64,000 nt of DNA, from positions 32,001 to 96,000 of IMG/VR virus record IMGVR_UViG_3300007775_000001; one strand, written 5' to 3'. Under the pieces are notes generated by a model, which saw only the letters and a list, made by a program, of their open reading frames with translations, made no database searches and had not been told where the DNA came from. Position numbers and translations under genes: made by a program. Shown here one piece after another: positions 5,585 to 45,689 of this stretch. Position 1 is the stretch's first letter; every line of letters starts with the position of its first letter. Source of the DNA: a virus.

Positions 5585-5848
5585 ATGGCAAGAAACTTCA
5601 GGTGGAAGGATTCTGGTGTTGATCTGTCGAGGAGAAAGTTTCTCAATGATCTTGATGCTGAATCGAAGGGAAGGCACGATTTTGGAGAGTTTAGAACCAA
5701 GAGTGGCGAATATAAACAACTCCCGTCAGACGGTGATGGGTTTGTGGACTGTCCACCAAAGATGGTAAGGTATGTTTCACCGATCAAACAGAGAGGGAAG
5801 GATGCTGCAAGCGATATCGACATCCTTGCGGAACTGAAAGATATTTGA
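5585..5848 (+). CDS. hypothetical protein with C-terminal DILAELKDI motif
   Basis: 87-aa ORF in operon. Confidence 0.7.
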   Translation: MARNFRWKDSGVDLSRRKFLNDLDAESKGRHDFGEFRTKSGEYKQLPSDGDGFVDCPPKMVRYVSPIKQRGKDAASDIDILAELKDI

Positions 5849-5923
5849 CATCTTTCTCTTTCTTCTTGACCTTGGCTAAGCTTTTGCTATGATAGTACAG
5901 GCTTATTCAAGCGGTGGATCATC

Positions 5924-10242: not shown

Positions 10243-10255
10243 GTTGACAAAGCAA

Positions 10256-10720
10256 ATGGCCGAGAGTACAACTGATGTCAGCATCGAGATCGATGAGTTG
10301 GTTTCTGACCCCATCAAACTGAAAGTCAGAGAAGCTCTTCACATTTCTGAAGACATCGATCACGAGATAGACAAAGCAGCCGGTGATTACGGCTACTATG
10401 CCGTGCTTGCGGAGAAAGCAAACTCGAAGCTTCAGCGAATTGAGTATGGCTATATCCAGTGGCGCGGTACTGCTGAACACAGCAAGCAAAGAGAGAGGGA
10501 AGCACAACGATTGAAGCCTTTGACCAAAGAGCAGATGGTTTCCTACATCCACTCTCTCCCACGATATGCAGCGTTTAGGTTGACACTCGTGAAGCTCACT
10601 GAGCAAGCAGGCTCTCTGAGAGCGATTGCAAAAGCCTTCGAGGTGAAGGCTGGATTGGTGCAAACCAAGGCTAGCAATCGCAGGAAGGAGATGGGAATAT
10701 CTAAGCGTCCAGGTGCTTAG
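10256..10720 (+). CDS. UvsY-like helical recombination mediator (putative)
   Basis: Coiled-coil protein of similar size between polymerase and SSB/RecA. Confidence 0.4.
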   Translation: MAESTTDVSIEIDELVSDPIKLKVREALHISEDIDHEIDKAAGDYGYYAVLAEKANSKLQRIEYGYIQWRGTAEHSKQREREAQRLKPLTKEQMVSYIHSLPRYAAFRLTLVKLTEQAGSLRAIAKAFEVKAGLVQTKASNRRKEMGISKRPGA

Positions 10721-10765
10721 ATTGTCAGCGCACTCGTGCGCTCAACTCTAGTTTGTGAGGTCGTG

Positions 10766-11806
10766 ATGGAAGGTCAAGCAAAGCCGGTGGCCGTCAGTGA
10801 AGAACAATTCGCTGAAGACCCTCGTGGTGATGGAGTTGTCGATGAATCCGAAGCTGTGTTCCAGGCTTCGGAAGAAGCGGAAGCTCAGCCAGAAGATCAG
10901 AGCGGTGATGAGGAAGCCGCTGCTTCTGGTGAGGCGGCTCCTTCGGAAGATGCTGCTGTACCGGCAGTGGTGGAACATGCTGTTCCTCCTCAACAGGCTG
11001 AGGCGATGCGTGACCAAGCGCGCAATAGCTATCGGTCTCTTCAGCGTGGCTGGTTCGAGTTCGCCAAATCGATCGCTCAGATCGTGGACACATCGGCGTA
11101 CACAAGCCTGGGCCACGAGTCCTTCAAATCTTTCTGCGAAGCAGAGTACCCGGACATTGCATACTCGACGTTGACCAAGTACGTCGCGGTGGTGCATCAG
11201 TACGGGGAGGAGATCGAAACTCGTCTGTCTGCGAATCCGGAGACGGTCGTTCCCGCTCTGGAGTCCCTGTACCAACTCGCGTCGGCACAGGGCCGGGTGG
11301 AAGAGGGCGACCGCTCCACGGCTCGCAAGCTGAGCAACCTGATCAAGAAGGTGTTCGAGGGCAATCTGTCCTATCACAGCTTGCGTGACAAGCTGGCAGA
11401 ACTTCGCGAAGCCTCGACGGGAACCGATCAAGCTTCTTCGACCGAAGCGGAAGTACACGGGATCGAAGAACAGCTTGCAGGTGAGGTTGTCGATGAAGTG
11501 ATGGCCGAAGGTGAAGAGGTCTCTGCTGTCGAGGAGGGTGCCGTCCCGAATGCGGAGCGGATCGTGAGCATCATCATGTCACAGATCGTGCCGCTGAAGG
11601 ACAACATCGCCATGCTGGAAAATGTCCTGACCACTGACCAGAGTCAGGTCACTGATGAGGTGGTGAGCGGCATTACGGAGATCGAGAATTTCCACAATCG
11701 GGTGAACGACTTCCTCAACGCCATGGAGAGATTGTCCAATGGTGGAGAAGAGCCGTCCGTCGATGCTCCCGTGGAAGTATCTCAGGGTGAAGAGGCAGGC
11801 GAATAG
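10766..11806 (+). CDS. acidic protein with central HTH-like domain
   Basis: YTSLGHESFKSFCEAEY..AYSTLTKY flanked by E-rich regions. Confidence 0.6.
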   Translation: MEGQAKPVAVSEEQFAEDPRGDGVVDESEAVFQASEEAEAQPEDQSGDEEAAASGEAAPSEDAAVPAVVEHAVPPQQAEAMRDQARNSYRSLQRGWFEFAKSIAQIVDTSAYTSLGHESFKSFCEAEYPDIAYSTLTKYVAVVHQYGEEIETRLSANPETVVPALESLYQLASAQGRVEEGDRSTARKLSNLIKKVFEGNLSYHSLRDKLAELREASTGTDQASSTEAEVHGIEEQLAGEVVDEVMAEGEEVSAVEEGAVPNAERIVSIIMSQIVPLKDNIAMLENVLTTDQSQVTDEVVSGITEIENFHNRVNDFLNAMERLSNGGEEPSVDAPVEVSQGEEAGE

Positions 11807-11852
11807 CCTGCCTCCGTGTCGGTAAGCAGTTCTCACCGAAGAGAGATTGGAC

Positions 11853-12788
11853 ATGAGTCTGACTGACAAGCTTCAAGAAGAAGCGAAACGACAGAAGGAA
11901 CGCAAGGCTGAACAAGGCGACTTCGAGAAGGTTGACTGGTTCAAGCCCAAGGATGGTGACAACATCATCCGGATCATGCCTCACTGGAGGATTCCCGAAG
12001 AGCTTTTCTTTGTGTCGGTGATCCTGCACTTCAGTATCGAGGTGCCCAAACAGGACGGATCGGGAACCATCCCCATTCCGGTACGGTGTCCGGCCAATGA
12101 GACACCGGCTCGCAAGTGTCCTATCTGTGAACTGATCGACAAGGCCAACAAGGAGCAGAAGGCGTTCTTCAAGGACGTGCGTCCTGTGGAACGCTACCTG
12201 TACAACGTCTTTGTGGCCGCCGAAGAGAAGATCAAGCCGTATCCGGCTCCTCTCACGGTGCACCAAGGAATCTTCGAATGGATTGAGGAGATTCCGAATC
12301 CGGTCGATCTGGACACGGGACGGGCATGGAAGTTGGTCAAGGAGGTGGACAAGACCAAGAGTGCTGCGTTCGGCACCAAGTACAAGGTGCGGCCAAGCAT
12401 GAATCCGTCTCCATTCCCAAGCAAGTTCCGCGAGCTTGTGCGGGATATGACCGACCTTTCCAAGCTGTATGGTGAAAAGCACGACGACGCTCTTAAGCGT
12501 GTCGCTGTGTCTCTTGCCAAGAAGGCTGGGATGATTGCGGTGAAAGATGATATCCCGTACGAGACAGGCCCGAAGTCAGATGAATTTGCTGAGGCACCCA
12601 AGCAGGCCGCGAGTGCTCCAGCGAAAGATGAGTTCGGTGATGCCGCTCCTGCAAAGGACTCGAAGCCTGAGTTTGCGGATGATTCTCCTTCCGAAGAAAG
12701 TTCTGAAGAACTCTCTCCAGAAGACATGGGTATCCAAAGCAGTGATGCTGAACTGAACGCTGAACTGAAGGCTCTGGGTATCGAGTAG
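11853..12788 (+). CDS. single-stranded DNA-binding protein (gp32-like)
   Basis: WFKPKDGDNIIRIMP, CPICE, RYLYNV, acidic tail. Confidence 0.85.
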   Translation: MSLTDKLQEEAKRQKERKAEQGDFEKVDWFKPKDGDNIIRIMPHWRIPEELFFVSVILHFSIEVPKQDGSGTIPIPVRCPANETPARKCPICELIDKANKEQKAFFKDVRPVERYLYNVFVAAEEKIKPYPAPLTVHQGIFEWIEEIPNPVDLDTGRAWKLVKEVDKTKSAAFGTKYKVRPSMNPSPFPSKFRELVRDMTDLSKLYGEKHDDALKRVAVSLAKKAGMIAVKDDIPYETGPKSDEFAEAPKQAASAPAKDEFGDAAPAKDSKPEFADDSPSEESSEELSPEDMGIQSSDAELNAELKALGIE

Positions 12789-12806
12789 CAACCAAGGAGG
12801 GTTGAC

Positions 12807-13778
12807 ATGGCTGCTGGATTCAAAAGGGGTGGTGCGCAATCTGCCGCTGCCCCTCCCTCTACGGTTGTCAAGCCAGAGGGCTCCCCTGTTTCGAAGTTGG
12901 TCAATTCTGTTGGTCAAGAAGACAAGTTGCTGTCGCTGTTGAAGGAAGACAAGATCGATGATGTGATCTTGCCGGACAGTGACAGCATGAGTCTTCTGGA
13001 GGTCGCGGGATGGGTTCCGATGCCTGAGCCTATCTCGAAGGTGATGGCATGCCCTGGAATCCCTATCGGGCTTGTTACGATGGTGCAAGGCAAGAAGGAT
13101 TCTGGCAAGACCACGTATGCTACAGAGGCTCTTCGCTCTGTTCAAGAGGAGGGCGGCATTGCTGTTCTTCTGGACACAGAGAACAAGTTCAATCTGAAGC
13201 GTGCGGCAATGATGGGGGTGGATGTCAAGCGTCTGCTGATCATCAAGGGTGAGACCATCGAGGACATCTTCGAGAAATTCATCGGATTCCTCAAGCGTCT
13301 CGAATCTGATGACCGCTACAAGCTGTTCCGTTCCAAGAAGATTCTGTTTGTGTGGGACTCTCTTGGAGCGACACCGTCCAAAGCGGAGATGGATGATAAG
13401 ACAACTGACTTTTCGATGACCGCTGCCAAGGTGATCAAGGGATACATGCGCAAGCTGATCACACGGCTTCGCAAGGCCAACGCTGCTTTCTTGATCATCA
13501 ATCAGGTGTATGCGAACATGAACACCTTCGGGAAGAAAACAACTGCGTACGGTGGGTCTGGCCCGGAGTATCACAGTGCTGTCATCCTGGAATGTACCAA
13601 GAAGAGTCGCATTCGACCGAAAGGTGCTAAGAAGGATGCAGAGTTCGCTGGCACTGAAGTCGAGATCGAATGCACCAAGAATCACATCGGTCAACCGTTT
13701 AGGAAGGTCGATGTGCAGATCGATCACAAAGGTTTTGTGATTGGTCGTGAGGTGGAGTACGCTCCAGAACCTGTTTGA
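12807..13778 (+). CDS. recA: RecA/UvsX-like recombinase
   Basis: GKKDSGKTT Walker A; LDTENKF; VWDSLGA; IINQ. Confidence 0.92.
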   Translation: MAAGFKRGGAQSAAAPPSTVVKPEGSPVSKLVNSVGQEDKLLSLLKEDKIDDVILPDSDSMSLLEVAGWVPMPEPISKVMACPGIPIGLVTMVQGKKDSGKTTYATEALRSVQEEGGIAVLLDTENKFNLKRAAMMGVDVKRLLIIKGETIEDIFEKFIGFLKRLESDDRYKLFRSKKILFVWDSLGATPSKAEMDDKTTDFSMTAAKVIKGYMRKLITRLRKANAAFLIINQVYANMNTFGKKTTAYGGSGPEYHSAVILECTKKSRIRPKGAKKDAEFAGTEVEIECTKNHIGQPFRKVDVQIDHKGFVIGREVEYAPEPV

Positions 13779-13790
13779 TCGGGGTCTCTC

Positions 13791-14846
13791 ATGCCAAAAG
13801 CATTGCTGTACTCTGATCTGCACATCAGGCCAGAGCGTCTAGCTGACTGTGATCATGCCCTGACTGTTATCGGACAGGCCGCCAAGGAACATGGTGTCGA
13901 GTACATCATCAACCTGGGTGACACGTTCGATGTTCGGGGCATTGTTCACACGGGCTGTCTGGAGACGTTGCGTAATCACTATCTTCAGTGGGCCAAGGAT
14001 GGTCTGAAGCAGATCATTCTTGTGGGTAACCACGATCAGGAAGACCGCGAAGGTGTGGTTCATCCCATGAGGGTGTTTGCGTCATATCCGGGTTGGGTGG
14101 TTGTTGATCGTCCGATGGTGATCAGACGAGCATCGAATTGGGCGTTCTTCCCCTACATGCACAAAATCACTGAGGCGGATATCGATGCGGTTGTGAGGGC
14201 ACGTAACATCGACTATGCCTTTGTCCATTGGGGAATCAAGGGTGCGAAGCGCAATGACAAGAACGTGGACACGGATGGGGTTCCTCCTGAATGGATTGCC
14301 AAGAAGGTAGGCACGGTATTCAGTGGTCACTACCACTATCGTTCTACATTTGGGATGCATGGGATTCAGTATGTAGGGAGCCCGATCCAACAGGACTTCG
14401 GTGAACGGGATCAAGAGAAGGGGTACATGATCTTCGATGAGGTTGAACGTTCTTCGAGGTTCTATCCCATCATGGGGACACGGAAGCATCATCAGATCGA
14501 GGTGCTGTTTGATCCTGACGGAAATCCAGCCGTCAGTGGCGACATGAGCGACATTCAGAAGGGTGATTTCCTCAAGGCTACTATCAAGGGTGAAGAAGCG
14601 ATTGTGTCTGGGTTTTCAGATGCCGATCTTCGAAAGCTCATTCCCAAAGAGGCGAATCCTGGCAGGCTTCTGATCGAGCGCGACATTAACGATGGATCAT
14701 CTTCCCGGATTGAGTTGACAGGGACAGAGATTCATTCCACACGCACGGTTATGCAGAAGTATGTAGATCACGTTGACACCGATCTTGACAAGGAACGGTT
14801 GTTGAATATGGGATTCGAAATGTTGGAGGGCCTATCTCATGAGTGA
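13791..14846 (+). CDS. SbcD/Mre11-like nuclease (gp47-like)
   Basis: SDLH, GDTFD, GNHD, SGHYH, GSP metallophosphoesterase motifs. Confidence 0.9.
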   Translation: MPKALLYSDLHIRPERLADCDHALTVIGQAAKEHGVEYIINLGDTFDVRGIVHTGCLETLRNHYLQWAKDGLKQIILVGNHDQEDREGVVHPMRVFASYPGWVVVDRPMVIRRASNWAFFPYMHKITEADIDAVVRARNIDYAFVHWGIKGAKRNDKNVDTDGVPPEWIAKKVGTVFSGHYHYRSTFGMHGIQYVGSPIQQDFGERDQEKGYMIFDEVERSSRFYPIMGTRKHHQIEVLFDPDGNPAVSGDMSDIQKGDFLKATIKGEEAIVSGFSDADLRKLIPKEANPGRLLIERDINDGSSSRIELTGTEIHSTRTVMQKYVDHVDTDLDKERLLNMGFEMLEGLSHE

Positions 14847-15090
14847 ACAATTGAAGGCTCCCTGGACTCCAGACGATGTTAGGGCTCTTTTCGATTCTCA
14901 GACGGAAGGAGTATTCCATCCCTACACTTGTCCCAATCGTGGAGATGGAAATCATCGTCATGTTGGGAGAGACCTTGGGATGCTGATTCCGACCATCAAG
15001 GGATGGGTGTGTCTGTTCTGTGATTATACTCAGGATTGGGCTCACACATTCAGCACAGAGGGTCATAGGAAAAATGCCGGTTCTGCGTGA
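14839..15090 (+). CDS. small Cys-rich hypothetical protein
   Basis: HPYTC..GWVCLFCDYTQDWAH. Confidence 0.65.
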   Translation: MSEQLKAPWTPDDVRALFDSQTEGVFHPYTCPNRGDGNHRHVGRDLGMLIPTIKGWVCLFCDYTQDWAHTFSTEGHRKNAGSA

Positions 15091-15385
15091 TTTTGTCTGC
15101 GGGTCATGCGATTACACCAAAGATGACTTCGCTGAGATTGATGATGTACTCGCTTGTCCCAGATGTGGCAAGGAGATGCGTCATGCTTGGTTGTCTGCCC
15201 CCAATTCGAATCAGTTGGGTGCAGAAGGTTCTTCTAGTTCAATCGCTGCCATGCAACAGTCGTTCCGTGAGAGGTTTGTCAAGAAGGAAATGGACGATGT
15301 TCGAAATAAGCATGGGAGCAATTTTGATGAGTCGCTAGTCAGTGCAGAAGCGGCGCGGATCAGAAAGGACAAAGGGCTGTCATGA
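15074..15385 (+). CDS. FmdB-like zinc-ribbon protein
   Basis: MP..DFVCGSC..CPRCG. Confidence 0.7.
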   Translation: MPVLRDFVCGSCDYTKDDFAEIDDVLACPRCGKEMRHAWLSAPNSNQLGAEGSSSSIAAMQQSFRERFVKKEMDDVRNKHGSNFDESLVSAEAARIRKDKGLS

Positions 15386-16182
15386 AACCAAGTCTTCGGA
15401 AGCAGTACGTTGGGAAGGAGTTTTCAGTTCTCGACCATGGTTTTGTGCAACTGGTCGATGTGATGGGGGATGATGGTGCTATCGTTTCTGCTGCTCGTAC
15501 TTCAGTCCACAATGTCAAGACGAGTCGTGATACGCGGGGTTTGATCAACTATCTCATGCGGAACATGCATACGTCTCCGTTCGAGATGGTTGAGTTCAAG
15601 TTTCTCTGCAAGATGCCAATCTTTGTGGCCCGTCAGTGGGTGCGTCATCGGACAGCTTCGATTAATGAGCAGTCTGCTCGCTACGGTGTGATGGACGATG
15701 AGTTCTACATGCCTGAACAGTGGCGTGTGCAATCCAAGAACAACAAGCAGGGATCATCTGAAGAGGTTGTGGATCAGTTCTACACGGGTCGCATCCAGAC
15801 CAGGGCTCAGGAGATCAGGAAGGAAGCGTACGATCACTATCAGAATCAATTGAACATTGGTGTTGCTCGCGAAGAGGCGCGGATCGATCTACCCCTTTCT
15901 CTCTACACCAAGTGGGTGTGGAAGATTGATCTACTGAATCTGTTCCGGTTCTTGAAGCTTCGGATGGACTCACACGCTCAGTACGAGATCAGGGTCTATG
16001 CGAACGCCATGGCAGAGATCGTGCGTGCTTTTGTTCCGATAGCTTGGGATGCGTTTGAGGAGCACTGGCTATACGCCAAGACGCTTTCTCGCAGTGATTA
16101 CGATGCGTTGAAGAAATTCGCTGTGACAGGAAGCCTTCCAGCCGAAGCAATGCGAATCCTTGGGATGCCACTCGCGACATGA
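15382..16182 (+). CDS. thyX: flavin-dependent thymidylate synthase
   Basis: HTSPFE; RQWVRHRTASINEQSARY; HAQYEIR. Confidence 0.96.
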   Translation: MKPSLRKQYVGKEFSVLDHGFVQLVDVMGDDGAIVSAARTSVHNVKTSRDTRGLINYLMRNMHTSPFEMVEFKFLCKMPIFVARQWVRHRTASINEQSARYGVMDDEFYMPEQWRVQSKNNKQGSSEEVVDQFYTGRIQTRAQEIRKEAYDHYQNQLNIGVAREEARIDLPLSLYTKWVWKIDLLNLFRFLKLRMDSHAQYEIRVYANAMAEIVRAFVPIAWDAFEEHWLYAKTLSRSDYDALKKFAVTGSLPAEAMRILGMPLAT

Positions 16183-16610
16183 GCAAGCTGCTTCGATTCA
16201 TTGGTGCATTCATCAGAATGTGGTGGGTGTACCAATGGGTCAACATGGATTCGGTGGTTCCGCGTCACGATTTCGATCCACGGCGCACGCGGATTTATAT
16301 GCTCAGCGTTGCTGGTCAGATCGTTCTTAAGCCTCGTTCTCAGGTTCATCTATCGAAGATGCGTGATCGCTGGGTGAACGAGATGCAGCGGGTGATGGAT
16401 TCGACGGGGTTTCTGATCAGGCGACGGGTATTTTGGGGAAGCAAGTTCGTCTCTCAAAAGCGAGCCTTCTTCATCTTGTTCAGGCGCATCAAGAAGAAGG
16501 AGAAGTGGAGACTGCGGTCGTACCGTGCTACCATGAGAACACGGCTGCGTTCATTCGGATATTGGTTGCTGGACGGGACACCAGAAACGGTTCTTACCTT
16601 CAGAGATTGA
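16179..16610 (+). CDS. basic hypothetical protein
   Basis: Coupled ORF between thyX and sbcC-like gene. Confidence 0.55.
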   Translation: MSKLLRFIGAFIRMWWVYQWVNMDSVVPRHDFDPRRTRIYMLSVAGQIVLKPRSQVHLSKMRDRWVNEMQRVMDSTGFLIRRRVFWGSKFVSQKRAFFILFRRIKKKEKWRLRSYRATMRTRLRSFGYWLLDGTPETVLTFRD

Positions 16611-16611
16611 C

Positions 16612-18411
16612 ATGAAGATCACTAGACTGAAGCTCAACAACTTCCTGAGCTACAAGGAGCAGGAATTCTCCGACTTCGATGGGCCAGCATTGATTCTGAT
16701 CGAGGGTCACAACAAGGATCAGGGTGATTCGAACGGTTCTGGCAAGAGCAGTGTCTTCGACGGAATCTCGTGGGCACTATTTGGTCAGACTCTTCGGGAC
16801 TCGAAGACCGATAACGTCATCAACAGAGATGCAAAGAAGGCAGGTTGCTCCGTTGAACTCGATGTGGAGGTGCAGGGCAAGGTCTTTCAGATCGTACGTT
16901 TCTACGGTCATCCGTCTGAGAAGAATAACCTTTACCTGAAGGAAGATGGGACAGATGTCACATTGGGCACAACAACCCTGACCCAAAAGTTTCTTAAGAA
17001 GGCTATTGGGATCGATTTCGATCTGTTCCGCTGCACAGTTGTCTTCGCTCAGGGCGAAACATTCAAGTTCATAGACGAGACGGACAAGAAGCAGAAGGAG
17101 ATTCTGTCGAAGATCATGCGGATCGATTTTGGCCCACTCTTGGATAAGTCCAAGAAAGAAGTCTCTGGACTGGAGTCAAAGCGATCCGACGTTGAACGGG
17201 TGATTGTGTCCCTGGATGCCAAGCTGGAGATCAATCCTGAAGAGACCTACAAAGACGAGGTCGAGAAGTGGGAGAAAGAGCACCAGGAATCGATTTCCAG
17301 GGCTGAACGGATTGTTTCTGAGGCACAGGATAGGCTTGATGGAGAAGGTTCCTTGAAAGTCGATGTAGAGGCCCTGAAGGTTACTCGTGAGAAGATCGTT
17401 GATCGTATCTCGGCAATCGAGAAGTCCATCGATGAGATGCAGGACATGCGTACCAACAATCTTGCCGATCAGCGGTCGTTCGACAGTGAGTTGAATCGCT
17501 TTAACAAGCTCGTTGCTGATGGCAAGTGTCCTACTTGTCTCCAGGCCGTTGAGGCTCATGATCTGAAGAGCGAGATTGATACCCTGAAGATCAAGCGCCA
17601 TGTGGCTACGGATGCTGCTCAGAAGGCAGAGAAGGTGATCGTGGAGTGCCGTAACTCCAAGACTGAATTCGAGGCCAAGAAGGATAAGATCGATACGGTC
17701 ATCGCTGAAACAGAAGCCCACAAGAAACGGTTGGCTAATCTGGCCGATGTGCTTGAGCAGGGCAAGAACGCTCTGAATACCATCAAGACAGAGGTCAACC
17801 CGTGGGCGGATCGGATCAAGCGTGAGATGGAGGAGTACGAGAAGACCAAGTTCAAGCGTCAAGAGGCAGAGAAGAAGGTAGCGGAGATCGATGAGAAGCT
17901 TCGTTATGCTCGTTTTTGGGTGACTGGATTCGGTGATTCTGGCATGAAGTCCTTTATCTTCGATCTGGTATGCTCGTCTCTCACATCGAAAGCCAATCGG
18001 TACGTTGGTATCATGACGGATGGAATGGTATCCATCGTGTTCACCACACAGACCAAGCTCAAGAGTGGAGAGGTCAGGGAACGTTTCTCGTGCGACATCA
18101 TTACAAACGGTGAGCGTATTCCGTACGAGAGCTACAGTGGTGGCGAGAAGACGCGTATTTCACTTGCGGTTGATCTTGCTCTGTCTGACGTGATGTCGGA
18201 TTACTATGGGTCTCAATTCAATGTTGCTGTGTTCGATGAGCAAGACCTGTACATGGACAACAAGGGGCGAACGAGCTACATGAATCTGCTGAAGGAGGTT
18301 GCTCAGCGGAAGCGTGTGTTTGTTGTGGCTCACGATGACGTGTTCAAGGGTGCTTTCAGTGACTCATGGATCATCGAGAAGGAAGGTGGTTTCTCGAAGA
18401 GGGTGGCGTGA
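16612..18411 (+). CDS. SbcC/Rad50-like ATPase (gp46-like)
   Basis: NGSGKSS; CPTC zinc hook; SGGEKTR; VFDE; VAH. Confidence 0.93.
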   Translation: MKITRLKLNNFLSYKEQEFSDFDGPALILIEGHNKDQGDSNGSGKSSVFDGISWALFGQTLRDSKTDNVINRDAKKAGCSVELDVEVQGKVFQIVRFYGHPSEKNNLYLKEDGTDVTLGTTTLTQKFLKKAIGIDFDLFRCTVVFAQGETFKFIDETDKKQKEILSKIMRIDFGPLLDKSKKEVSGLESKRSDVERVIVSLDAKLEINPEETYKDEVEKWEKEHQESISRAERIVSEAQDRLDGEGSLKVDVEALKVTREKIVDRISAIEKSIDEMQDMRTNNLADQRSFDSELNRFNKLVADGKCPTCLQAVEAHDLKSEIDTLKIKRHVATDAAQKAEKVIVECRNSKTEFEAKKDKIDTVIAETEAHKKRLANLADVLEQGKNALNTIKTEVNPWADRIKREMEEYEKTKFKRQEAEKKVAEIDEKLRYARFWVTGFGDSGMKSFIFDLVCSSLTSKANRYVGIMTDGMVSIVFTTQTKLKSGEVRERFSCDIITNGERIPYESYSGGEKTRISLAVDLALSDVMSDYYGSQFNVAVFDEQDLYMDNKGRTSYMNLLKEVAQRKRVFVVAHDDVFKGAFSDSWIIEKEGGFSKRVA

Positions 18412-18929
18412 AGGAATCCGTTTTTCAGAAGGAAGTGATCAAGTCTTTCCGCGAAGCGGGGGGATGGGCAGAGAAATTCCCAGATTTCCCAACGTCTCAG
18501 ATGGACAGTGCCAACCTGGACACGGTTCGGTTCACTCCAGAGAAGCCATTCGATGTGATGGGGATGTTTAGGTTCAGAGCTTTCGCGGTGGAATGCAAAC
18601 AGATGAAGGGCTTCAAGGCTCTGAATCTTGGTATGATGCGTGACAGTCAGATCAGGGTTCTGACGGAAGTGACAGAGAGGCAGGCTGCTCACGCTTTTGT
18701 GTTCTTGAATGTGCGGATTGGCAGAACGATCAATCGTCTGATCATCTTGCCATGGGCAGACCTGTACAACAGGCTCCAAGTCAGAAGCATTGCGGCAGAT
18801 GAGTTGAGATCGATGCCTTACTTCCAGGGCAAGTTTGGGATGTTCAACATTCAGCCGTGGCTTCTTGAGAAGACCAATGCCAAATTCCAACGGAGACAAC
18901 GCATCATCAGAGCTAGAGCGAGCGGTTAG
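18408..18929 (+). CDS. RecU-like Holliday junction resolvase (PD-(D/E)xK)
   Basis: KPFD..FAVECK..Q motif; GTGA coupling. Confidence 0.7.
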   Translation: MKESVFQKEVIKSFREAGGWAEKFPDFPTSQMDSANLDTVRFTPEKPFDVMGMFRFRAFAVECKQMKGFKALNLGMMRDSQIRVLTEVTERQAAHAFVFLNVRIGRTINRLIILPWADLYNRLQVRSIAADELRSMPYFQGKFGMFNIQPWLLEKTNAKFQRRQRIIRARASG

Positions 18930-19251
18930 TCGTTTTGGCGAGATGGGAATGGCATACGGTCATTCCGATGTGTCGGTCGAAGAGGTGCCACGGGCAATTT
19001 TCGCTGCAACAGCGAGCACAACACGCCACTTTGGTCATATCGGTATCAGCATTCATCCGGAGAGTGGAAGAGCCTTTGTCCGGATCACGCTGAGATGGTA
19101 TGCTCGATGGAATTGGATCGTGTTGAGATGGCTTCTGAAGCGAAAGAGAGAGCGTTGGTTGAACCGGGCTGAAACACGATGCAGGATGGTTGTACCTAAC
19201 GGAATCCGTTTGGTCGTGTACTATGGCAAGCGTAAAATCGAAGACGAGTAA
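18877..19251 (+). CDS. hypothetical protein
   Basis: ORF in operon. Confidence 0.5.
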   Translation: MPNSNGDNASSELERAVSRFGEMGMAYGHSDVSVEEVPRAIFAATASTTRHFGHIGISIHPESGRAFVRITLRWYARWNWIVLRWLLKRKRERWLNRAETRCRMVVPNGIRLVVYYGKRKIEDE

Positions 19252-19600
19252 TTTGTTTCTTCAGATGCTCGTAACTATCAGGAAGGATCGTACCTACTTC
19301 CCGAAGGTCATTGATCAGTTCTGGGAACTGAACCATGAGCATCGCATCGCCCTGGTCAGGTATCTGATGGATCAGGTAGGCAAGGAATCGTGGAAAGAAT
19401 GGGCCGCCGATCCGACTCAGCATGTAGAGATCATCAAAGCGTTGTTGATGGCATACACGGGTCGCAAGGAACTCGATGAGCCGTCGCGCATTGATTTGGC
19501 AAAGCTGATCGGTGGCTATACTCAGACCAAGGAGTATCGCGAGATTGAGATATCGCTTTCTTCTTCTGTGAACGTCACAGAAGCTTTGGAGAACTTGTGA
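19223..19600 (+). CDS. hypothetical protein
   Basis: ORF in operon. Confidence 0.6.
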   Translation: MASVKSKTSNLFLQMLVTIRKDRTYFPKVIDQFWELNHEHRIALVRYLMDQVGKESWKEWAADPTQHVEIIKALLMAYTGRKELDEPSRIDLAKLIGGYTQTKEYREIEISLSSSVNVTEALENL

Positions 19601-19818
19601 TGACCGTGCTTGAACTATTGAAGATCGGGAAAGACCCGGTCAATTTCGCTCTGGAACTGACAGAAACCGAGACCCAGAATTCTGTGTCTGTCAACGTGGC
19701 CGTCTTTGGCGGGAGCTACGATACGATCCTCCGTAGTTTGACCACGGCTGTTCGACAGGGTCTTGCTCAAATGGGGATCACAGAAGAGACCATCGATGGA
19801 CAACGAGCAGAAGGGTAG
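19597..19818 (+). CDS. hypothetical protein
   Basis: GTGA-coupled ORF. Confidence 0.55.
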   Translation: MMTVLELLKIGKDPVNFALELTETETQNSVSVNVAVFGGSYDTILRSLTTAVRQGLAQMGITEETIDGQRAEG

Positions 19819-19970
19819 GGAGTTCAGACAGGAGGAGACTCAGAATCTCCAGAAGTCAGAGAGACCTGATGCGAAGTATATGCAGGATCGTCATCTCTGT
19901 ACTGTCTGTCACGGTGTAGCTCGTGTGTGCGAGCGTGGGGATTGTCCCCAAAGGGGTATTGGAGGTTGAC

Positions 19971-20456
19971 ATGTCTGGCGGATTGACCAATCGTCGTACT
20001 CCCTCGAAGAAGAAGCCCGGCGTGCGTCAACGCATGCGTGGGCTTCAAGGTATCGCTCAGCACAACGCCAGTCTCGCTCAAGCGAATGGCAAGAAACTTT
20101 CAGAGGCTTCTCATTGGATTGCTGCCCTGGCTGTGACAATTCATGGACTGAAGGAGAGATTCCCCGGTCTGGAAGAAGAAGTCGTTTGGAAGTGGGCGGA
20201 TTGGTTTGTCAATGCTGGCAACTACACCAAAGAGCAGATTGAGGAGCTTCAGGGTGTGGTGGCAAAGCTGCCCATCGACAAACTCAGAGTGGTGGAGAAA
20301 CCAAAGCCGGAAGTTACGCCAGAGTCAAAGCCAAGGGCTCGATTCACAAGGAACCGGGATGGCAACAATCAGAACGTGCAAGGTGGCGGACTACCTCAGA
20401 TTGGATCAGGTGGTCATCCATCCGGAGAACACAGAGCTTCGAAGGATCAGTCCTGA
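19971..20456 (+). CDS. hypothetical protein
   Basis: GGAGG RBS before ATG 19971. Confidence 0.6.
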   Translation: MSGGLTNRRTPSKKKPGVRQRMRGLQGIAQHNASLAQANGKKLSEASHWIAALAVTIHGLKERFPGLEEEVVWKWADWFVNAGNYTKEQIEELQGVVAKLPIDKLRVVEKPKPEVTPESKPRARFTRNRDGNNQNVQGGGLPQIGSGGHPSGEHRASKDQS

Positions 20457-21081
20457 GAAGTGGGAGTCTCTGAAGAAGTCGATCCTTGAGCATGGTGTCT
20501 ATCGTCCCATCCATGTGTGGGAACAAGAACGATGGGCTTTGTCTGGCAACCATCTCCTGAAGGCGATTCGGGAGTTGGTGCAAGAGGGTCACACTCTTGA
20601 ATCGCCTTCAGGTCGTGGTTTTGTGCCGGTGATCTTCCATGATGTAGGGGAGAAAGAAGCCAAGGCGATCTTCTTCCAGACCAACAATACGTTCGCAGAT
20701 TGGGTGGAAGACAATCTGAGCAACGCGATCAAGCGATACAACGAGATCGGTGGGGATGTGTATGGCCTTGGTTTTCCTCAAGGGGAAATCGAAGCGATCA
20801 TGGGTGTGGTTGATCAGGCGATCAAAGAGACTGCACCCATCATGGAGAAGGTCGAGGAGTTGAACGAGCAGGTTATCCAAGATGCTGTCAACGATCCGCC
20901 TGTCGAGGCTCAACGGACTTTGACACTGAGCGAGGGTGTGTACGATCAGCTTGAGGGTGTGCTGATCGACATTGCAAAGCGGCTCAATCCAGATTGGAAG
21001 AAGGGCGACTCCTTCAATGAGGCGGTTGCTGCTCTGGTTCAGATTTGGCGAGAACGACAACTGTCTTCACAGGTCGCATGA
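20359..21081 (+). CDS. ParB/Srx N-terminal-domain protein
   Basis: HPEN..R..LKKSILEHGVYRPIHV..LSGNHLLKA. Confidence 0.8.
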   Translation: MATIRTCKVADYLRLDQVVIHPENTELRRISPEKWESLKKSILEHGVYRPIHVWEQERWALSGNHLLKAIRELVQEGHTLESPSGRGFVPVIFHDVGEKEAKAIFFQTNNTFADWVEDNLSNAIKRYNEIGGDVYGLGFPQGEIEAIMGVVDQAIKETAPIMEKVEELNEQVIQDAVNDPPVEAQRTLTLSEGVYDQLEGVLIDIAKRLNPDWKKGDSFNEAVAALVQIWRERQLSSQVA

Positions 21082-21806
21082 TCAAGGTCGAGGAGTGGGA
21101 CGGTCTTCAGACCAATGTGGTCATCCACGGTGCTTTCGAAGAGGTCTACAAGAAGGCACAGATCAGGGCTGATCTTCTGGTTACGAGTCCGCCCTATCCA
21201 ACGTCTACCACGAGATACATCCCCTCACTTGGCGGGAATGTGAATGACCGTACGGTGACGCGGAACAGGTTGTACAGCAAGAGTCATGCGAAGGTTGGGG
21301 AGTCCGACTATCTCAGATGGGCTCAGCTATGCATCGGTTTCGCTCCTCTGGTGTTCTTCAATATTCCTGCTCGTGTGCTTGATTACGATCTTGGTGCAAA
21401 GCCGTTTAACCATGTCGTGTGGGTGAAGACCAATGGAGCGGTGCCATTTGCTCACAAAGGGGTGGTACGTTTCCATGAGTTTATATTGCTTTTCGGTGAT
21501 CACAAGCGGTTGAACAAGCCGATGCGCTCAGTTTGGGAGATGGCTTCACAACGAGGGTCAGATCATCCAGCACCGTTCCCGATCAATCTTCCGGCGAGAG
21601 CTATTCATTATGGTAGCAAGCCTGGAGACCTTGTGTTCGATCCGTTTGGAGGAAGCGGGACTACTGCGGCGGTAGCCAAAGCCATGAATAGGCGTTGGCT
21701 CACATGCGACACAGAACAGGAGTTCTGCGAGATGATGGATGATCGAATTGCGAGGGTGAGAACTTCAGGCGACGGGAGCCAACTTGGGGGAAGGGAGGGA
21801 AACTGA
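21078..21806 (+). CDS. DNA amino-methyltransferase (N4-C/N6-A, beta class)
   Basis: TSPPY; HPAPFP; FDPFGGSGTT. Confidence 0.92.
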   Translation: MIKVEEWDGLQTNVVIHGAFEEVYKKAQIRADLLVTSPPYPTSTTRYIPSLGGNVNDRTVTRNRLYSKSHAKVGESDYLRWAQLCIGFAPLVFFNIPARVLDYDLGAKPFNHVVWVKTNGAVPFAHKGVVRFHEFILLFGDHKRLNKPMRSVWEMASQRGSDHPAPFPINLPARAIHYGSKPGDLVFDPFGGSGTTAAVAKAMNRRWLTCDTEQEFCEMMDDRIARVRTSGDGSQLGGREGN

Positions 21807-21896
21807 CCCCCGTCGCCTTCGGTGCCGGTAAGCATGGTCAGATTCGCATGCGATTTTTCCAAAGTCAAGAACTATTTTTGGTATTGGAAAAATTTC

Positions 21897-21925
21897 TTGC
21901 GTTCTCGAAGGTGTTCTGTTAGGAT
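21897..21925 (+). promoter_or_regulatory. sigma70-type promoter for the large ncRNA candidate
   Basis: TTGCGT-17-TAGGAT with TG extension. Confidence 0.5.
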
Positions 21926-21929
21926 GATG

Positions 21930-22532
21930 ATCACGATGACACGGGCCTAGCATGGTGGTGGACGTGTCGGGTCAGTCTGTGGTGCAGGGCAAGGCTCTGC
22001 ACTTCGCTCAAGATGAAGAAGTGCAACACGTGATGACACAGATCAGTCATGCCTAACTGATCTTTGGGAAAGCGGGGAGACCGCTGACTCTAACGTGCCG
22101 GGTAGGGACGATGCGCTGATTCGCATTTGAGACTGGCGATAAGCGTTCCCGAGTCCCAGAAAGGAGGTGAGTCCCATGCTTAGTAATTGATAAACACTGC
22201 GCACTTGCGCGACCTTGAGTCTATTGAGGGGCCTAGACGGATATGAGTCTATCACTATTACGATGTGTTTAGACCATCGGTCTGTGACAGCGTGGAGGCA
22301 GATAGAAGATCATTTGGGGTCTTCTCGCAGTAGCCTTTGAAGCGTACCGCCCGTTGAAGCCAAACACATGCGATGAGAAGTATACGAGGAAAGCCCCGCT
22401 ATTGGATGCAATAGGATGGGGAAATACTGATGGGAAGGTACTGCGTAGTAGTGTCGTTTATGGATCGCCCCGAAGAGGAAAGGGCGTGGGAGCCCTGCCA
22501 TTGAAGACATTCGTTGGCAGGGTTTCTTTTTT
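21930..22532 (+). ncRNA. candidate large ornate ncRNA (~600 nt; ROOL/GOLLD-like size and context)
   Basis: No credible ORF; more than ten hairpins; long-range ATGTGTTT/AAACACAT pairing; flanked by promoter and terminator. Confidence 0.6.
22490..22532 (+). terminator. intrinsic terminator
   Basis: GAGCCCTGCCA...TGGCAGGGTTTC + T6. Confidence 0.75.
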
Positions 22533-22549
22533 CCGGACAGGGAGTCGAG

Positions 22550-22780
22550 ATGGCAGAACAGGTTGATCGTCCCACCCATTACGGGGGAACAGATTGCATC
22601 GAAGCAATGGAGAAGATGCTGTCCAGAGAAGAGTTCATTGGTTTCCTTCGAGGAACCATCTTCCGATATCAATGGAGATGGCGTCAGAAGAACGGCGAGC
22701 AGGATTTGGAAAAGGCTCGTTGGTACGATAGGTATCTCAAGGAGTACATGCAGAGATGCTCTGAACCAGTTTCTACGTAG
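22550..22780 (+). CDS. DUF3310 family protein
   Basis: VDRPTHY..DCIEAM..RYQWR..KNGEQDLEKARWY. Confidence 0.88.
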   Translation: MAEQVDRPTHYGGTDCIEAMEKMLSREEFIGFLRGTIFRYQWRWRQKNGEQDLEKARWYDRYLKEYMQRCSEPVST

Positions 22781-22784
22781 AAAC
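22769..22784. repeat. dispersed palindrome copy 2
   Basis: GTTTCTACGTAGAAAC, overlaps the TAG stop. Confidence 0.9.
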
Positions 22785-22786
22785 CC

Positions 22787-23656
22787 ATGGCTGCCAAGTT
22801 TGTTCGCACGACATCCAAGCCAGAGGGCAAGAAACCCTTCGATGTGAAGTCTCTTCGCTCGAATCGACCAGTGTTCAAGCGTCGGTCTTCTGTTGCGTTG
22901 GCGACCTCTCCGGTTCCCAAGCATGGCCCGAAGATTGCTCGCATCGAAGACCTGGATGCACTCATGGTTGAGCGTGGTGTTTTGTTTCCGCACGCTTCGA
23001 TTCGCGATTACCTCATCAATGTGAAGGGGTATTCAGAGAGTCAGTACCATATCTTCATGAAGTTCGCTCCAGCAATGGATTGGGACGAGCGCAAGCGTCT
23101 TCTTCAAGACCAGATCACACAGCAACTCGTGGCACGGCACATCGATGGAATTGCCGAAGCCCATGATATGTTTCTGAAGGCGTCCAAGCTGGGTATTGGG
23201 CGTGCTCTTGAAATGCTTGCTAGGCTTCAGGTGAGCGATGTTCCTGTCGAGGTGGAAGTTCCCGACTTGAAGAACCCTGGCAAGACCAAGGTGGTGAAGA
23301 AGTTCTCCTTGCGGAGCGTTGATCTTCTCAACATCTTGTCTGCTTTGAAGAGTGCTCAGGAAATCTACCGCAAGGCCATGGGGATTAACGACGAGGAAGA
23401 CAGCATGGTAAACCTCATGGAGCGGTTCCGACAGACCGTTGGTGCGCAATCACGGTTGAACATCACTCAAGTCAACGTCAACTCTGGTGGTGAGTCGAAA
23501 TCGGTATCTGTCGAGGGTGTTGATTACGATGACGTGAAGCTCATCCTTGAGGCGTTGCGTCAGGCCAAAACAGAGTCCAAGGATGAAGATGAGGAAGAAG
23601 TAGCGGGAGAACTCATCATCCATGGTGATCCTGTCGTGACCAAGGTTGTGAACTGA
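22787..23656 (+). CDS. hypothetical protein, possibly terminase small subunit-like
   Basis: Helical core followed by NITQVNVN beta-like stretch and acidic tail; function tentative. Confidence 0.5.
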   Translation: MAAKFVRTTSKPEGKKPFDVKSLRSNRPVFKRRSSVALATSPVPKHGPKIARIEDLDALMVERGVLFPHASIRDYLINVKGYSESQYHIFMKFAPAMDWDERKRLLQDQITQQLVARHIDGIAEAHDMFLKASKLGIGRALEMLARLQVSDVPVEVEVPDLKNPGKTKVVKKFSLRSVDLLNILSALKSAQEIYRKAMGINDEEDSMVNLMERFRQTVGAQSRLNITQVNVNSGGESKSVSVEGVDYDDVKLILEALRQAKTESKDEDEEEVAGELIIHGDPVVTKVVN

Positions 23657-23670
23657 CTGTCGCCCCCCCT

Positions 23671-23712
23671 CCCCTTGCGTCAGTCCGTGCAACTGACGCA
23701 AGGGGTCTTTTT
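23671..23712 (+). terminator. intrinsic terminator
   Basis: CCCCTTGCGTCAGT/ACTGACGCAAGGGG + TCTTTTT. Confidence 0.85.
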
Positions 23713-23802
23713 GACTCCTCGTTTTCTTGTTGACTTCCGCTGTACTCCCTGTCATACTGTAGTCGTGGGAAGGAAGTGAGAACTCTGAATGGAGAGAGGG
23801 TC

Positions 23803-24075
23803 ATGAACAGCGCACTGCATGAAGAAAATCACGAGGAGTTTCGAGCGAAACTCCAGAGTGAGCGTGACCGGCTCCTTCCTATCTTCAACCGGGTCGCGAA
23901 TCCGGATGACTGGAAGGCTCCGATCAGCGCATGGGTGGATGCTGCCGAAGTGGACAACGTCGTGCAAGCAATCGGGTACTTCACGGCAACGGTGGCGAAG
24001 GTCGCTTGGGGTCTGAAACCGGGCAAGGCATACGTGACTTCGGTCGGCTACAGGGTTGGCCCGGCTGGGCCATAA
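23803..24075 (+). CDS. hypothetical protein
   Basis: GAGG RBS; ORF. Confidence 0.65.
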   Translation: MNSALHEENHEEFRAKLQSERDRLLPIFNRVANPDDWKAPISAWVDAAEVDNVVQAIGYFTATVAKVAWGLKPGKAYVTSVGYRVGPAGP

Positions 24076-24097
24076 CACGGGAAAAGAGGAGACTCCC

Positions 24098-24280
24098 ATG
24101 AAGAATTGTACATGCAAGGGGACGGGAAGACAGAGGGTCTACAACGGGAAGACCAATTTCACCATTCCTTGCACAACCTGCAAGGGTTTAGGCAAGCTCC
24201 CGGTGCGACTGGAGACGGGCAATCTCCAATCGCCGTTGGCGAACGTGCGCGTCTTCGAGGAAGGAACACAAGTCGGTTGA
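24098..24280 (+). CDS. small CxxCxGxG zinc-finger protein
   Basis: CTCKGTG..CTTCKGLG. Confidence 0.65.
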   Translation: MKNCTCKGTGRQRVYNGKTNFTIPCTTCKGLGKLPVRLETGNLQSPLANVRVFEEGTQVG

Positions 24281-24292
24281 CAAAGGAGAAAC

Positions 24293-24694
24293 ATGACTGA
24301 ACCACTGTTCACCGAAGCGGATGTGATCTACGCGGTCAATCTGCGAGACGTGGTGGAAGACGGCTGGCTGGATGGCAATGCTGGAACGCTTGCACCAATC
24401 AGCCGCAAGTTCTTCAAGCATCCGGTGTGGGCTTCTCCGGGTGTGTACACGGTGATGGAGAAGGCGGTACAGGAAGATTCGAAGTTCTATACTTTCGAGT
24501 CGCTGTGGGCGTACTTCCTATTCCGTACCGTTCGCTTCGCGGAAGACGTGAATGAATCAACTCGTAAGTTCACGTTCCAGCGTAGGACTGATGGGATGCA
24601 TCATCGTCCGGTTGAGATCATGGTCTGTGTCCAGGCGTGGGCGGTCGATGACCCCAAGCCTGTTGTGACGCTCTATCTCCCGGAGGAAGACTAG
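24293..24694 (+). CDS. DUF6573-like protein
   Basis: VIYA..RDVVEDGWL, C-terminal VTLYLPEED. Confidence 0.55.
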   Translation: MTEPLFTEADVIYAVNLRDVVEDGWLDGNAGTLAPISRKFFKHPVWASPGVYTVMEKAVQEDSKFYTFESLWAYFLFRTVRFAEDVNESTRKFTFQRRTDGMHHRPVEIMVCVQAWAVDDPKPVVTLYLPEED

Positions 24695-24716
24695 GGGCTC
24701 TCTCTCCCCTGCCACG

Positions 24717-24753
24717 AGAGCACTCAGGAGAAATTCTGAGTGCTCTTTTTTTT
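24717..24753 (+). terminator. intrinsic terminator
   Basis: AGAGCACTCAG/CTGAGTGCTCT + T-run. Confidence 0.85.
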
Positions 24754-24756
24754 GCC

Positions 24757-24811
24757 TTGACATCATGTAGTACATGTAGTACACTGTAACTGTGGCTGAG
24801 AGAGAAACCCT
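24757..24811 (+). promoter_or_regulatory. conserved early promoter with leader motif
   Basis: TTGACA-17-TACACT then GTGGCTGAGAGAGAAACCC. Confidence 0.85.
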
Positions 24812-24829
24812 GAATAGAGGAAAGAACCC

Positions 24830-32453: not shown

Positions 32454-32507
32454 TTGACATTGTGTAGCACATGTAATACACTATAACTGTGGCTGAGAGA
32501 GAAACCC
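32454..32507 (+). promoter_or_regulatory. conserved early promoter with leader motif
   Basis: TTGACA-17-TACACT then GTGGCTGAGAGAGAAACCC. Confidence 0.85.
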
Positions 32508-32523
32508 TGAACGGAGAACGGTC

Positions 32524-43670: not shown

Positions 43671-43724
43671 TTGACTTTCCGTCATACATGTAGTACATTA
43701 GAATCGTGGCTGAGAGAGAAACCC
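43671..43724 (+). promoter_or_regulatory. conserved early promoter with leader motif
   Basis: TTGACT-17-TACATT then GTGGCTGAGAGAGAAACCC. Confidence 0.8.
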
Positions 43725-43758
43725 CGGCGGAACCGGGAACCTAGACCGAGGGTGGATC

Positions 43759-44772: not shown

Positions 44773-44987
44773 CCATGGAGGTTGACGTGTCAACACCAAT
44801 CGTGATGACCAAGAGAGAGTTTGCCGAAGCCCAAGAAGCAGCGCGGAAGTATCGTCATACCAGTAGCAGGATGACGATGCGACTGATGCAGGCGATCAAG
44901 CAACGGCACCCAAGGGCAGACAAGCGGCTTGCCAATTCAGCCTAGCGGTGTTAGGATAGTCTACCCCAAAAAAACAGGAGATTGACC

Positions 44988-45689
44988 ATGGGCGTCTACC
45001 AACGGTTGTTGGAGAAGGTCGAAGAAATTCCGTTTCTGCGTGATCCTCGATTCGACAAATACGAATTCGAGTTCAAGCTGAGTAGACCGGATTTCTCTTC
45101 CTTTATCACTGAAGGTGGAACCGATGTGGTTCCTGGGAACGGGTACGCCACCTTCTACTGGAAGGAAGGCCGCACGTTCAAGGTGTTGCCGTACGATCAT
45201 GATCAAGCCGATGCTCCCATTGGGATGCTAACCACGGCTCCCGAAGAGCTTCTGAAGCAGGCGATAGAGGGCACGGAATACGAGGCTATGGCTCTCGATC
45301 CGCGTACGGGGCAATACTACGACGTGAAGAAGGGGTCGCCCAAACCTGAAAGTTGTGAGATGGGCAAGTGGTCGCCGGAACATCTGGACGCCACTCTCAC
45401 GCATCATTACATGAGCCTGTCGGAGCACGAACGTTTCAAGGTCACTCGTGACCTGATGAACATGCTCTACATGATGATGACGGATCGTTCGCTGATGGCG
45501 GTGGGGTATCTGAACAACAATCCCACCTTGGTTGATCTGATCCATATCCACAAGCATCTGATGATCCATGCGGACAAGGAGATGAAGGACATCCTGTCCG
45601 GTGCTCTGAAGAAGCTTGGGATCGATGTGGGAGACTCCAAGCCTGACACGCCTGAAAAGCCTGAGAACGACGGCAAGGTTTTGAACTAG
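44988..45689 (+). CDS. hypothetical protein
   Basis: AGGAG RBS; 233 aa. Confidence 0.7.
   Translation: MGVYQRLLEKVEEIPFLRDPRFDKYEFEFKLSRPDFSSFITEGGTDVVPGNGYATFYWKEGRTFKVLPYDHDQADAPIGMLTTAPEELLKQAIEGTEYEAMALDPRTGQYYDVKKGSPKPESCEMGKWSPEHLDATLTHHYMSLSEHERFKVTRDLMNMLYMMMTDRSLMAVGYLNNNPTLVDLIHIHKHLMIHADKEMKDILSGALKKLGIDVGDSKPDTPEKPENDGKVLN

Follow-up and report, generated by a model that had tools for sequence, protein, structure and literature searches.

The genome of an uncultured soil phage holds a 743-nt interval free of genes, flanked by a DNA methylase gene and a gene for a DUF3310-type protein, and the question it raises is whether this interval specifies a large, elaborately folded RNA, as a sequence-only reading of the locus had proposed, or something else. 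The IMG/VR record of the phage comprises 114,950 bp with terminal repeats, of which bases 32001–96000 were analyzed as one 64-kb stretch (hereinafter the window; positions below refer to it unless given as genome positions). Six studies have yielded metagenomes, from soil, wetland, and estuary, that contain near-identical DNA. Essentially all genes of the phage lie on the + strand, and the window carries 30 tRNA genes. The sequence-only reading had called the interval the largest ORF-free gap of the window: the gap is real, but it is the largest only when the tRNA arrays are set aside. Replication genes (DnaE, SbcCD-like, and the methylase) lie directly upstream of it (Table 1), and two genes follow the terminator that closes it, the DUF3310 gene and then one encoding a 289-aa protein, whose closest homologue (P0002, 42% identity) is encoded on a 22.6-kb Logan contig. 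At the stop codon of the DUF3310 gene, we also noted an overlapping perfect 16-bp palindrome, GTTTCTACGTAGAAAC, at 22765–22780.

Table 1. Sequence features of the gene-free interval and its surroundings, with positions in the 64-kb window.
Feature	Position	Strand	Remarks
Promoter class TTGACA-N17-TACAsT, starts of the −35	239, 1972, 24757, 32454, 35514, 38684, 43671; weaker 23730	+	
N6/N4 DNA methylase gene	21045–21806	+	Pfam PF01555; upstream flank of the gap
Gene-free interval (gap)	21807–22549	+	743 nt, from the methylase stop (21806) to the next ATG (22550); from the ORF list
AT-rich imperfect palindrome or long hairpin, ATTTTTCCAA..TTGGAAAAAT	21843–21903	+	overlaps the −35 of the candidate promoter
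Candidate sigma-70-type promoter TTGCGT-17-TAGGAT	21897–21925	+	extended −10 (TGT-TAGGAT)
Predicted multi-branched domain 1	21944–22233	+	minimum-energy fold; z −2.5 relative to shuffles
34-codon ORF	21952–22056	+	without Shine-Dalgarno (SD); sole positive coding score in the gap, +9 bits per 120 nt
Super-SD AGAAAGGAGGTGA	22158–22170	+	pairs perfectly over 13 nt with the 16S rRNA 3′ tail UCACCUCCUUUCU
Mini-ORF ATG CTT AGT AAT with tandem stops TGA TAA	22176–22193	+	ATG 8 nt after the GGAGG core
Predicted multi-branched domain 2	22253–22453	+	minimum-energy fold; closed by a 10-bp helix, 22253–62/22444–53; z −2.8 relative to shuffles
Intrinsic terminator	22488–22532	+	interrupted 17-bp stem (13 + 4), 4-nt loop, then TTTCTTTTTT
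DUF3310-type gene, 76 codons	22550–22780	+	ATG 22550; PHROG 236 and relatives; downstream flank of the gap

Coding scores, a survey of stop-codon recoding, and protein searches agree that the 743-nt stretch is non-coding, possible tiny ORFs aside, and we accept it as such; in this respect the sequence-only reading, which had also placed it on the same strand as all the genes, holds good. The longest + strand ORFs inside the gap would encode 42, 34, 41, and 70 aa (ORF list). A three-periodic Markov model, trained on the long genes of the same genome, returned negative coding potential for all six frames of 22060–22540, a result that is supportive rather than decisive because the genuine DUF3310 gene escapes the model as well. 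The product of the one ORF with a positive score, 34 aa in length, matched only itself among 1.84 billion representative proteins. Homologues of the conceptual 70-aa and 49-aa peptides were sought and none was found, and tblastn and tblastx searches with the gap against the relatives described below retrieved nothing. Stop-codon recoding was considered and rejected: the gap is not spanned by an open frame when TGA, TAG, or TAA is taken as a sense codon, and there is no suppressor among the 30 tRNAs.

We searched for the gap sequence both in databases and in the corresponding loci of related phages. Blastn against 50,697 phage records found no homologue, and neither did blastn, nhmmer, and tblastx against ~1.1 Mb of loci from relatives, gathered via five proteins (DUF3310, in viral and metagenome collections; the methylase; TerL; DnaE; and the 289-aa protein, by means of its family alignment). 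Whole-record searches of nine related records did not find the gap sequence either, and single-protein scans with SbcC and the 289-aa protein gave no relatives. The syntenic slot is covered by three relatives, namely G006 (a complete 108-kb phage with 45% GC, one tRNA, and a DnaE 54% identical to that of our phage), L212 (a 19.8-kb contig), and L213 (a 104-kb phage), which retain the order of the homologues of the genes at 10244–21081 or 22787–23656. Upon comparing 20206–23656 with L205 1837–7177, L212 2380–6669, and L213 up to 6645, we found that the space between the homologues of 20206–21081 and 22787–23656 is occupied in the four phages, including this one, by four different gene sets: the methylase, the gap, and DUF3310 here, an antirepressor-like gene with small genes in G006, and a gene for a 555-aa protein in L212. 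None of the three relatives has a comparable gap in the slot, each having different small protein genes instead. Their slots hold unrelated genes, and these searches recovered no homologue of the gap; the interval is thus a hypervariable accessory slot, with a gap sequence that is, as far as the searches reached, private to this phage lineage. As no relative carries the ribosome-docking element described below, selection on that element is not demonstrable by conservation. A separate point concerns the DnaE homologues of G006 (L199 10001–14311) and L198, which are 4311 nt long versus 3261 nt here; this difference in length suggests an insertion of ~1 kb in their polymerase gene, possibly an intein.

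ROOL and GOLLD, the large RNAs with which the sequence-only reading had compared the gap, often adjoin tRNA genes or sit in prophages, and the ROOL model comprises six multistem junctions, three pseudoknots, and about 10 invariant nucleotides. The mean length of ROOL is 581 nt (PMC5737381). When scanned with Rfam 15 at the gathering score, the 64-kb window and the other 52 kb of the genome yielded tRNAs only, and a permissive scan (E≤10) of 21700–22700 detected no ROOL, GOLLD, OLE, tmRNA, RNase P, or intron. The sub-threshold Rfam matches were all to terminator-like hairpins (PhotoRC-I with 24 bits, cut-off 45; the rnk leader with 20.7 bits, cut-off 55). Further, the HEARO, T-box, and riboswitch models of Rfam had no match in the gap, and ARAGORN identified no tmRNA. 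The covariance-model check that had been advised for this locus thus matched no family, and the gap does not adjoin tRNA genes, the closest of these being at 164–427 and from 35555 onward, at least 13 kb off.

The predicted structure was compared with the background of the same genome. All ten short helices listed by the sequence-only reading exist in the gap sequence, and about six of them are present in the minimum-energy fold; however, GACACG/CGTGTC and CTTCTC/GAGAAG are absent from it, and so is the proposed long-range pairing of ATGTGTTT with AAACACAT. The 603-nt sequence proposed as the RNA folds with −221.2 kcal/mol (z −2.3 relative to 20 shuffles), which places it 84th among 380 equal-sized windows of the genome, with a GC-adjusted z of −1.1. 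The two multi-branched domains of this fold are likewise normal background, given that 62 domains cut in the same way from minimum-energy folds elsewhere in the genome have a mean z of −2.1 (sd 1.5). Both measures therefore speak against an ornate fold beyond chance: a hairpin-rich look and a shuffle z near −2.5 are ordinary in this genome. The + strand ensemble is unusually well defined, with a diversity of 67.4 (second lowest of 134 windows) and a minimum-energy structure nearly identical to the centroid, and that of the − strand is diffuse; the low diversity, the sole positive sign from the folding analysis, is weak evidence, because the value depends on the exact window start, climbing to 92–172 once this is moved by 14–120 nt. 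Among the near-identical contigs from other samples, two SNPs fall in the sequence, one (21985 C>T) converting a stem pair to G-U and the other (22375 G>A) lying in a loop; by chance alone, two SNPs would both be compatible with the fold in about half of cases.

The transcription-unit map of the genome is given by a very sharply conserved promoter class, TTGACA-N17-TACAsT, present in about 13 copies, on the + strand only, with a conserved spacer (..tGTAGyaCAtGTAG) that ends in tGTAG. Besides the copies in the window, others occur upstream of it and at genome 98881. After three of these promoters, a common 5′ leader, (a/g)taACTGTGGCTGAGAGAGAAACCC, is seen (24786–24815, 32483–32512, and 43700–43729), which is a predicted conserved 5′ UTR element. 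A promoter scan of the gap detected no copy of the class. The TTGCGT-17-TAGGAT site that the sequence-only reading had taken as the upstream boundary is indeed there, but its score with the position weight matrix for this class is −3.7, and it does not belong to the main promoter class of the phage. The arrangement TTGC-N-TGTTAGGAT recurs once, at 44929, 30 nt upstream of the SD and ATG of the gene at 44989, and in view of this recurrence it may represent a minor promoter type. The palindrome that overlaps the candidate −35 has a dG of −19.6 and a z of −4.3, with none of 200 shuffles as stable; it is possibly an operator or an UP element.

At the other end, the intrinsic terminator named as the closing boundary is confirmed as a GC-rich hairpin directly followed by a U tract (dG −26.7, z −6.1; none of 200 shuffles matched its stability), and by strength it ranks in the top three of the genome. 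It ends 18 nt short of the DUF3310 ATG, and as the promoter scan found no promoter between the two, the DUF3310 and 289-aa genes need read-through of the terminator. The other two of the three strongest terminators, at 23671–23715 (dG −26) and 24721–24753 (dG −14.8), are each followed by a promoter within 20–30 nt; these terminator-promoter pairs divide 22550–24750 into very short, separately terminated units.

Beyond the boundary hairpins, i.e., the palindrome and the terminator, the one feature of the gap that is clearly above chance is the super-SD. It is exactly complementary to the final 13 nt of the tail GAUCACCUCCUUUCU, which is of the Bacillus type (tail sequence from PMC5427494). This anti-16S match is the longest in the 115-kb genome, the next longest being 9 nt, and no real gene of the phage has an SD of more than 9 nt; in 1.15 Mb of other phage DNA there is no match of at least 13 nt, and the chance expectation of such a 13-nt match in 743 nt is about 5e-5. 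The SD:anti-SD duplex reaches −22.2 kcal/mol; among the predicted gene starts, the best value is −13.8 and the median −5.6. The super-SD is followed by the four-codon mini-ORF, past whose ATG the frame has 7 in-frame stops in 120 codons, as in random sequence. That the SD, the ATG, and the tandem stops are intact amid such random-looking sequence argues for selection on the site itself, and suggests that ribosome docking is what is selected. According to the predicted ensemble, the purine half of the SD stays single-stranded and the ATG pairs with 21949–21955, an arrangement more like that of a docking site than that of an efficient start. A search of 596 Gb of prokaryotic genomes with a degenerate pattern (super-SD + 4-codon ORF + TGATAA) retrieved one unrelated Bacteroidetes match, which is at chance level, and the super-SD minigene is accordingly not a recurrent motif; it is a small but real curiosity. 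A minigene acting through a rare ("hungry") codon was also considered and rejected, as the sense codons CTT, AGT, and AAT are common in the phage.

By analogy with STAB-SD and lambda bar, we tentatively favor, with a probability of roughly 0.4, the reading that the gap specifies an untranslated RNA or leader, accessory and private to the lineage, which carries a mini-gene for ribosome docking. We infer that the stretch is transcribed, that it binds ribosomes, and that this has a stabilizing or regulatory effect. Either or both of two sources would supply the + strand transcript, namely read-through from the replication operon (~20 kb, beginning with the strong promoter at 1972) and the weaker extended −10 promoter at 21897–21925; the transcript would end at the strong terminator (22488–22532). 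Its functional core would be the ribosome-docking site, made up of the 13-nt complement at 22158–22170 and, at ideal spacing, the four-codon mini-ORF with its two stops. A 30S subunit or ribosome held at the SD could shield the downstream RNA from 5′-to-3′ decay, as does STAB-SD in the cry3A mRNA; the shielded RNA would consist of the ~370-nt 3′ part together with any read-through message for the promoterless DUF3310 and 289-aa genes. Alternatively, the docking site might serve as a lambda-bar-like minigene. Counting against a stabilizer are the distances from the SD to the terminator (320 nt) and to the next gene (380 nt), with a strong terminator between; moreover, the shielding would call for an RNase J-type 5′ exonuclease in the host, which is not to be assumed.

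In the 558-nt leader of cry3A, the SD-like sequence STAB-SD serves to bind 30S subunits and to block RNase J1 (PMC4113751), and ribosomes at a strong SD likewise block RNase J1 on the hbs mRNA (PMC5737220). The gap resembles the cry3A, hbs, and ermC leaders in having an extended complement of the 16S tail in a long untranslated RNA, far from protein genes; its 13-mer, which includes GAAAGGAGG, is exposed in the predicted structure, and the ATG is masked there. In contrast to STAB-SD, which has no start codon, an ATG at ideal spacing and a 4-codon ORF follow here, and a strong terminator stands between the site and the next gene. The lambda bar minigenes are very short ORFs with an SD, which sequester peptidyl-tRNA. 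With lambda bar, the gap shares a phage-borne strong SD, an ATG, a few codons, and a stop within an otherwise non-coding RNA (22158–22193). However, the bar ORFs have two codons and act via a rare Ile codon in Pth-limited Escherichia coli, whereas the mini-ORF has four codons, all of its sense codons after the ATG being common ones. The precedent for such minigenes is the work cited as reference 20 of PMC2490762. If the docking reading is correct, the phage possesses an untranslated RNA keyed on ribosome capture and not on an elaborate fold, and an accessory cassette of a phage would join the known cases of ribosome-mediated RNA stabilization or of translation control by minigenes. The reading would also account for the expression of two promoterless genes behind a strong terminator.

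This reading has to be weighed against others, beginning with those in which the fold of the RNA is what matters. An assignment to ROOL, GOLLD, or any other large RNA family already in the catalogues has in its favor the size class of ~600 nt and a carrier phage with many tRNA genes, and nothing further. Unlike ROOL (RF03087) and GOLLD, the gap has no model match, none of these families having been returned by Rfam at either threshold and no tmRNA by ARAGORN, no tRNA neighbor, with the arrays 13 kb off, no family of homologues, and a fold at background; we reject this assignment as far as covariance models can test it, and consider its probability negligible. On these same tests, a new large ornate RNA is unproven and unlikely: such a stand-alone structured non-coding RNA of ~600 nt, constituting a new lineage-restricted class, would extend from the promoter at 21897 to the end at 22532, in keeping with the non-coding sequence, the candidate promoter, the strong terminator, the well-defined + strand ensemble, and the compatibility of both SNPs with the predicted fold. 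However, its folding energy is that of the genome background, the diversity signal is window-dependent, the two SNPs would agree with the fold by chance about half the time, its promoter is outside the conserved class of the phage, and neither the phage database, the ~1.1 Mb of related loci, the three syntenic slots, nor Rfam supplied a homologue or match. As a candidate ornate RNA, it is hence a weak orphan without a family, and claims of this kind rest on covariation. A ribosome decoy made by the phage, in which an exposed 13-nt anti-16S sequence and the minigene on a lineage-private structured ~600-nt RNA would capture host 30S subunits or make ribosomes cycle unproductively, appears improbable to us; if real, it would serve to remodel translation in the infected host, to which the phage already contributes 30 tRNAs.

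Two further readings were weighed. The order of a promoter (21897), an RBS (22158), an ATG (22176), and a terminator (22523), in a slot that holds different accessory genes in each of the three relatives, is also that of a moron, a promoter-gene-terminator cassette situated between conserved phage genes; one may once have been inserted here and its ORF since destroyed, which would leave the RBS, ATG, and terminator as functionless relics; the open stretches 22194–22340 and 22303–22566 overlap, such that one frameshift would join them. Like a moron, the gap has its own candidate promoter, RBS, and strong terminator, with slot content that varies between relatives, but it differs in containing no protein gene. 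We regard this origin by decay as not very likely, because the frame after the ATG has as many stops as noted above and negative coding potential, the conceptual peptides have no homologue, and tblastx was empty; decay this deep should have eroded the 13-nt SD too, which in any case exceeds that of every real gene of the phage, and the tandem TGA TAA is unlike the product of a single nonsense mutation. Highly improbable, finally, is a DNA-level element, namely an origin of replication activated by transcription, which would lie where the replication module ends and be composed of the AT-rich palindrome, the promoter, and a G-rich transcript. The position directly after the replication genes, the palindrome of 61 nt with its low z, and the GC skew of +0.13 to +0.26, which would make the transcript G-rich, are compatible with an origin; nevertheless, there are no iterons or notable direct-repeat families, the GC skew is positive throughout the genome without an inflection at the gap, no comparable gap occupies this position in the relatives, and neither a strong terminator nor a ribosome-binding site is characteristic of origins.

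The background control of the folding analysis also brought to light local folds that are stronger than those of the gap, at 5772–5922 (z −6.9), 1186–1443 (z −5.0), and genome 102106–102365 (z −5.2), the first of which adjoins a promoter-like site, TTGACC-16-TATGAT, at 5866. Upstream of the window, a stretch of ~535 nt (L194 3612–4146, corresponding to genome 23612–24146) contains only a 42-codon ORF and has no match in Rfam. The 603-nt windows from genome 23178 and 23479, which overlap the start of this stretch, have the second and fourth lowest GC-adjusted folding energies of the 380 (z −2.9 and −2.5, respectively).
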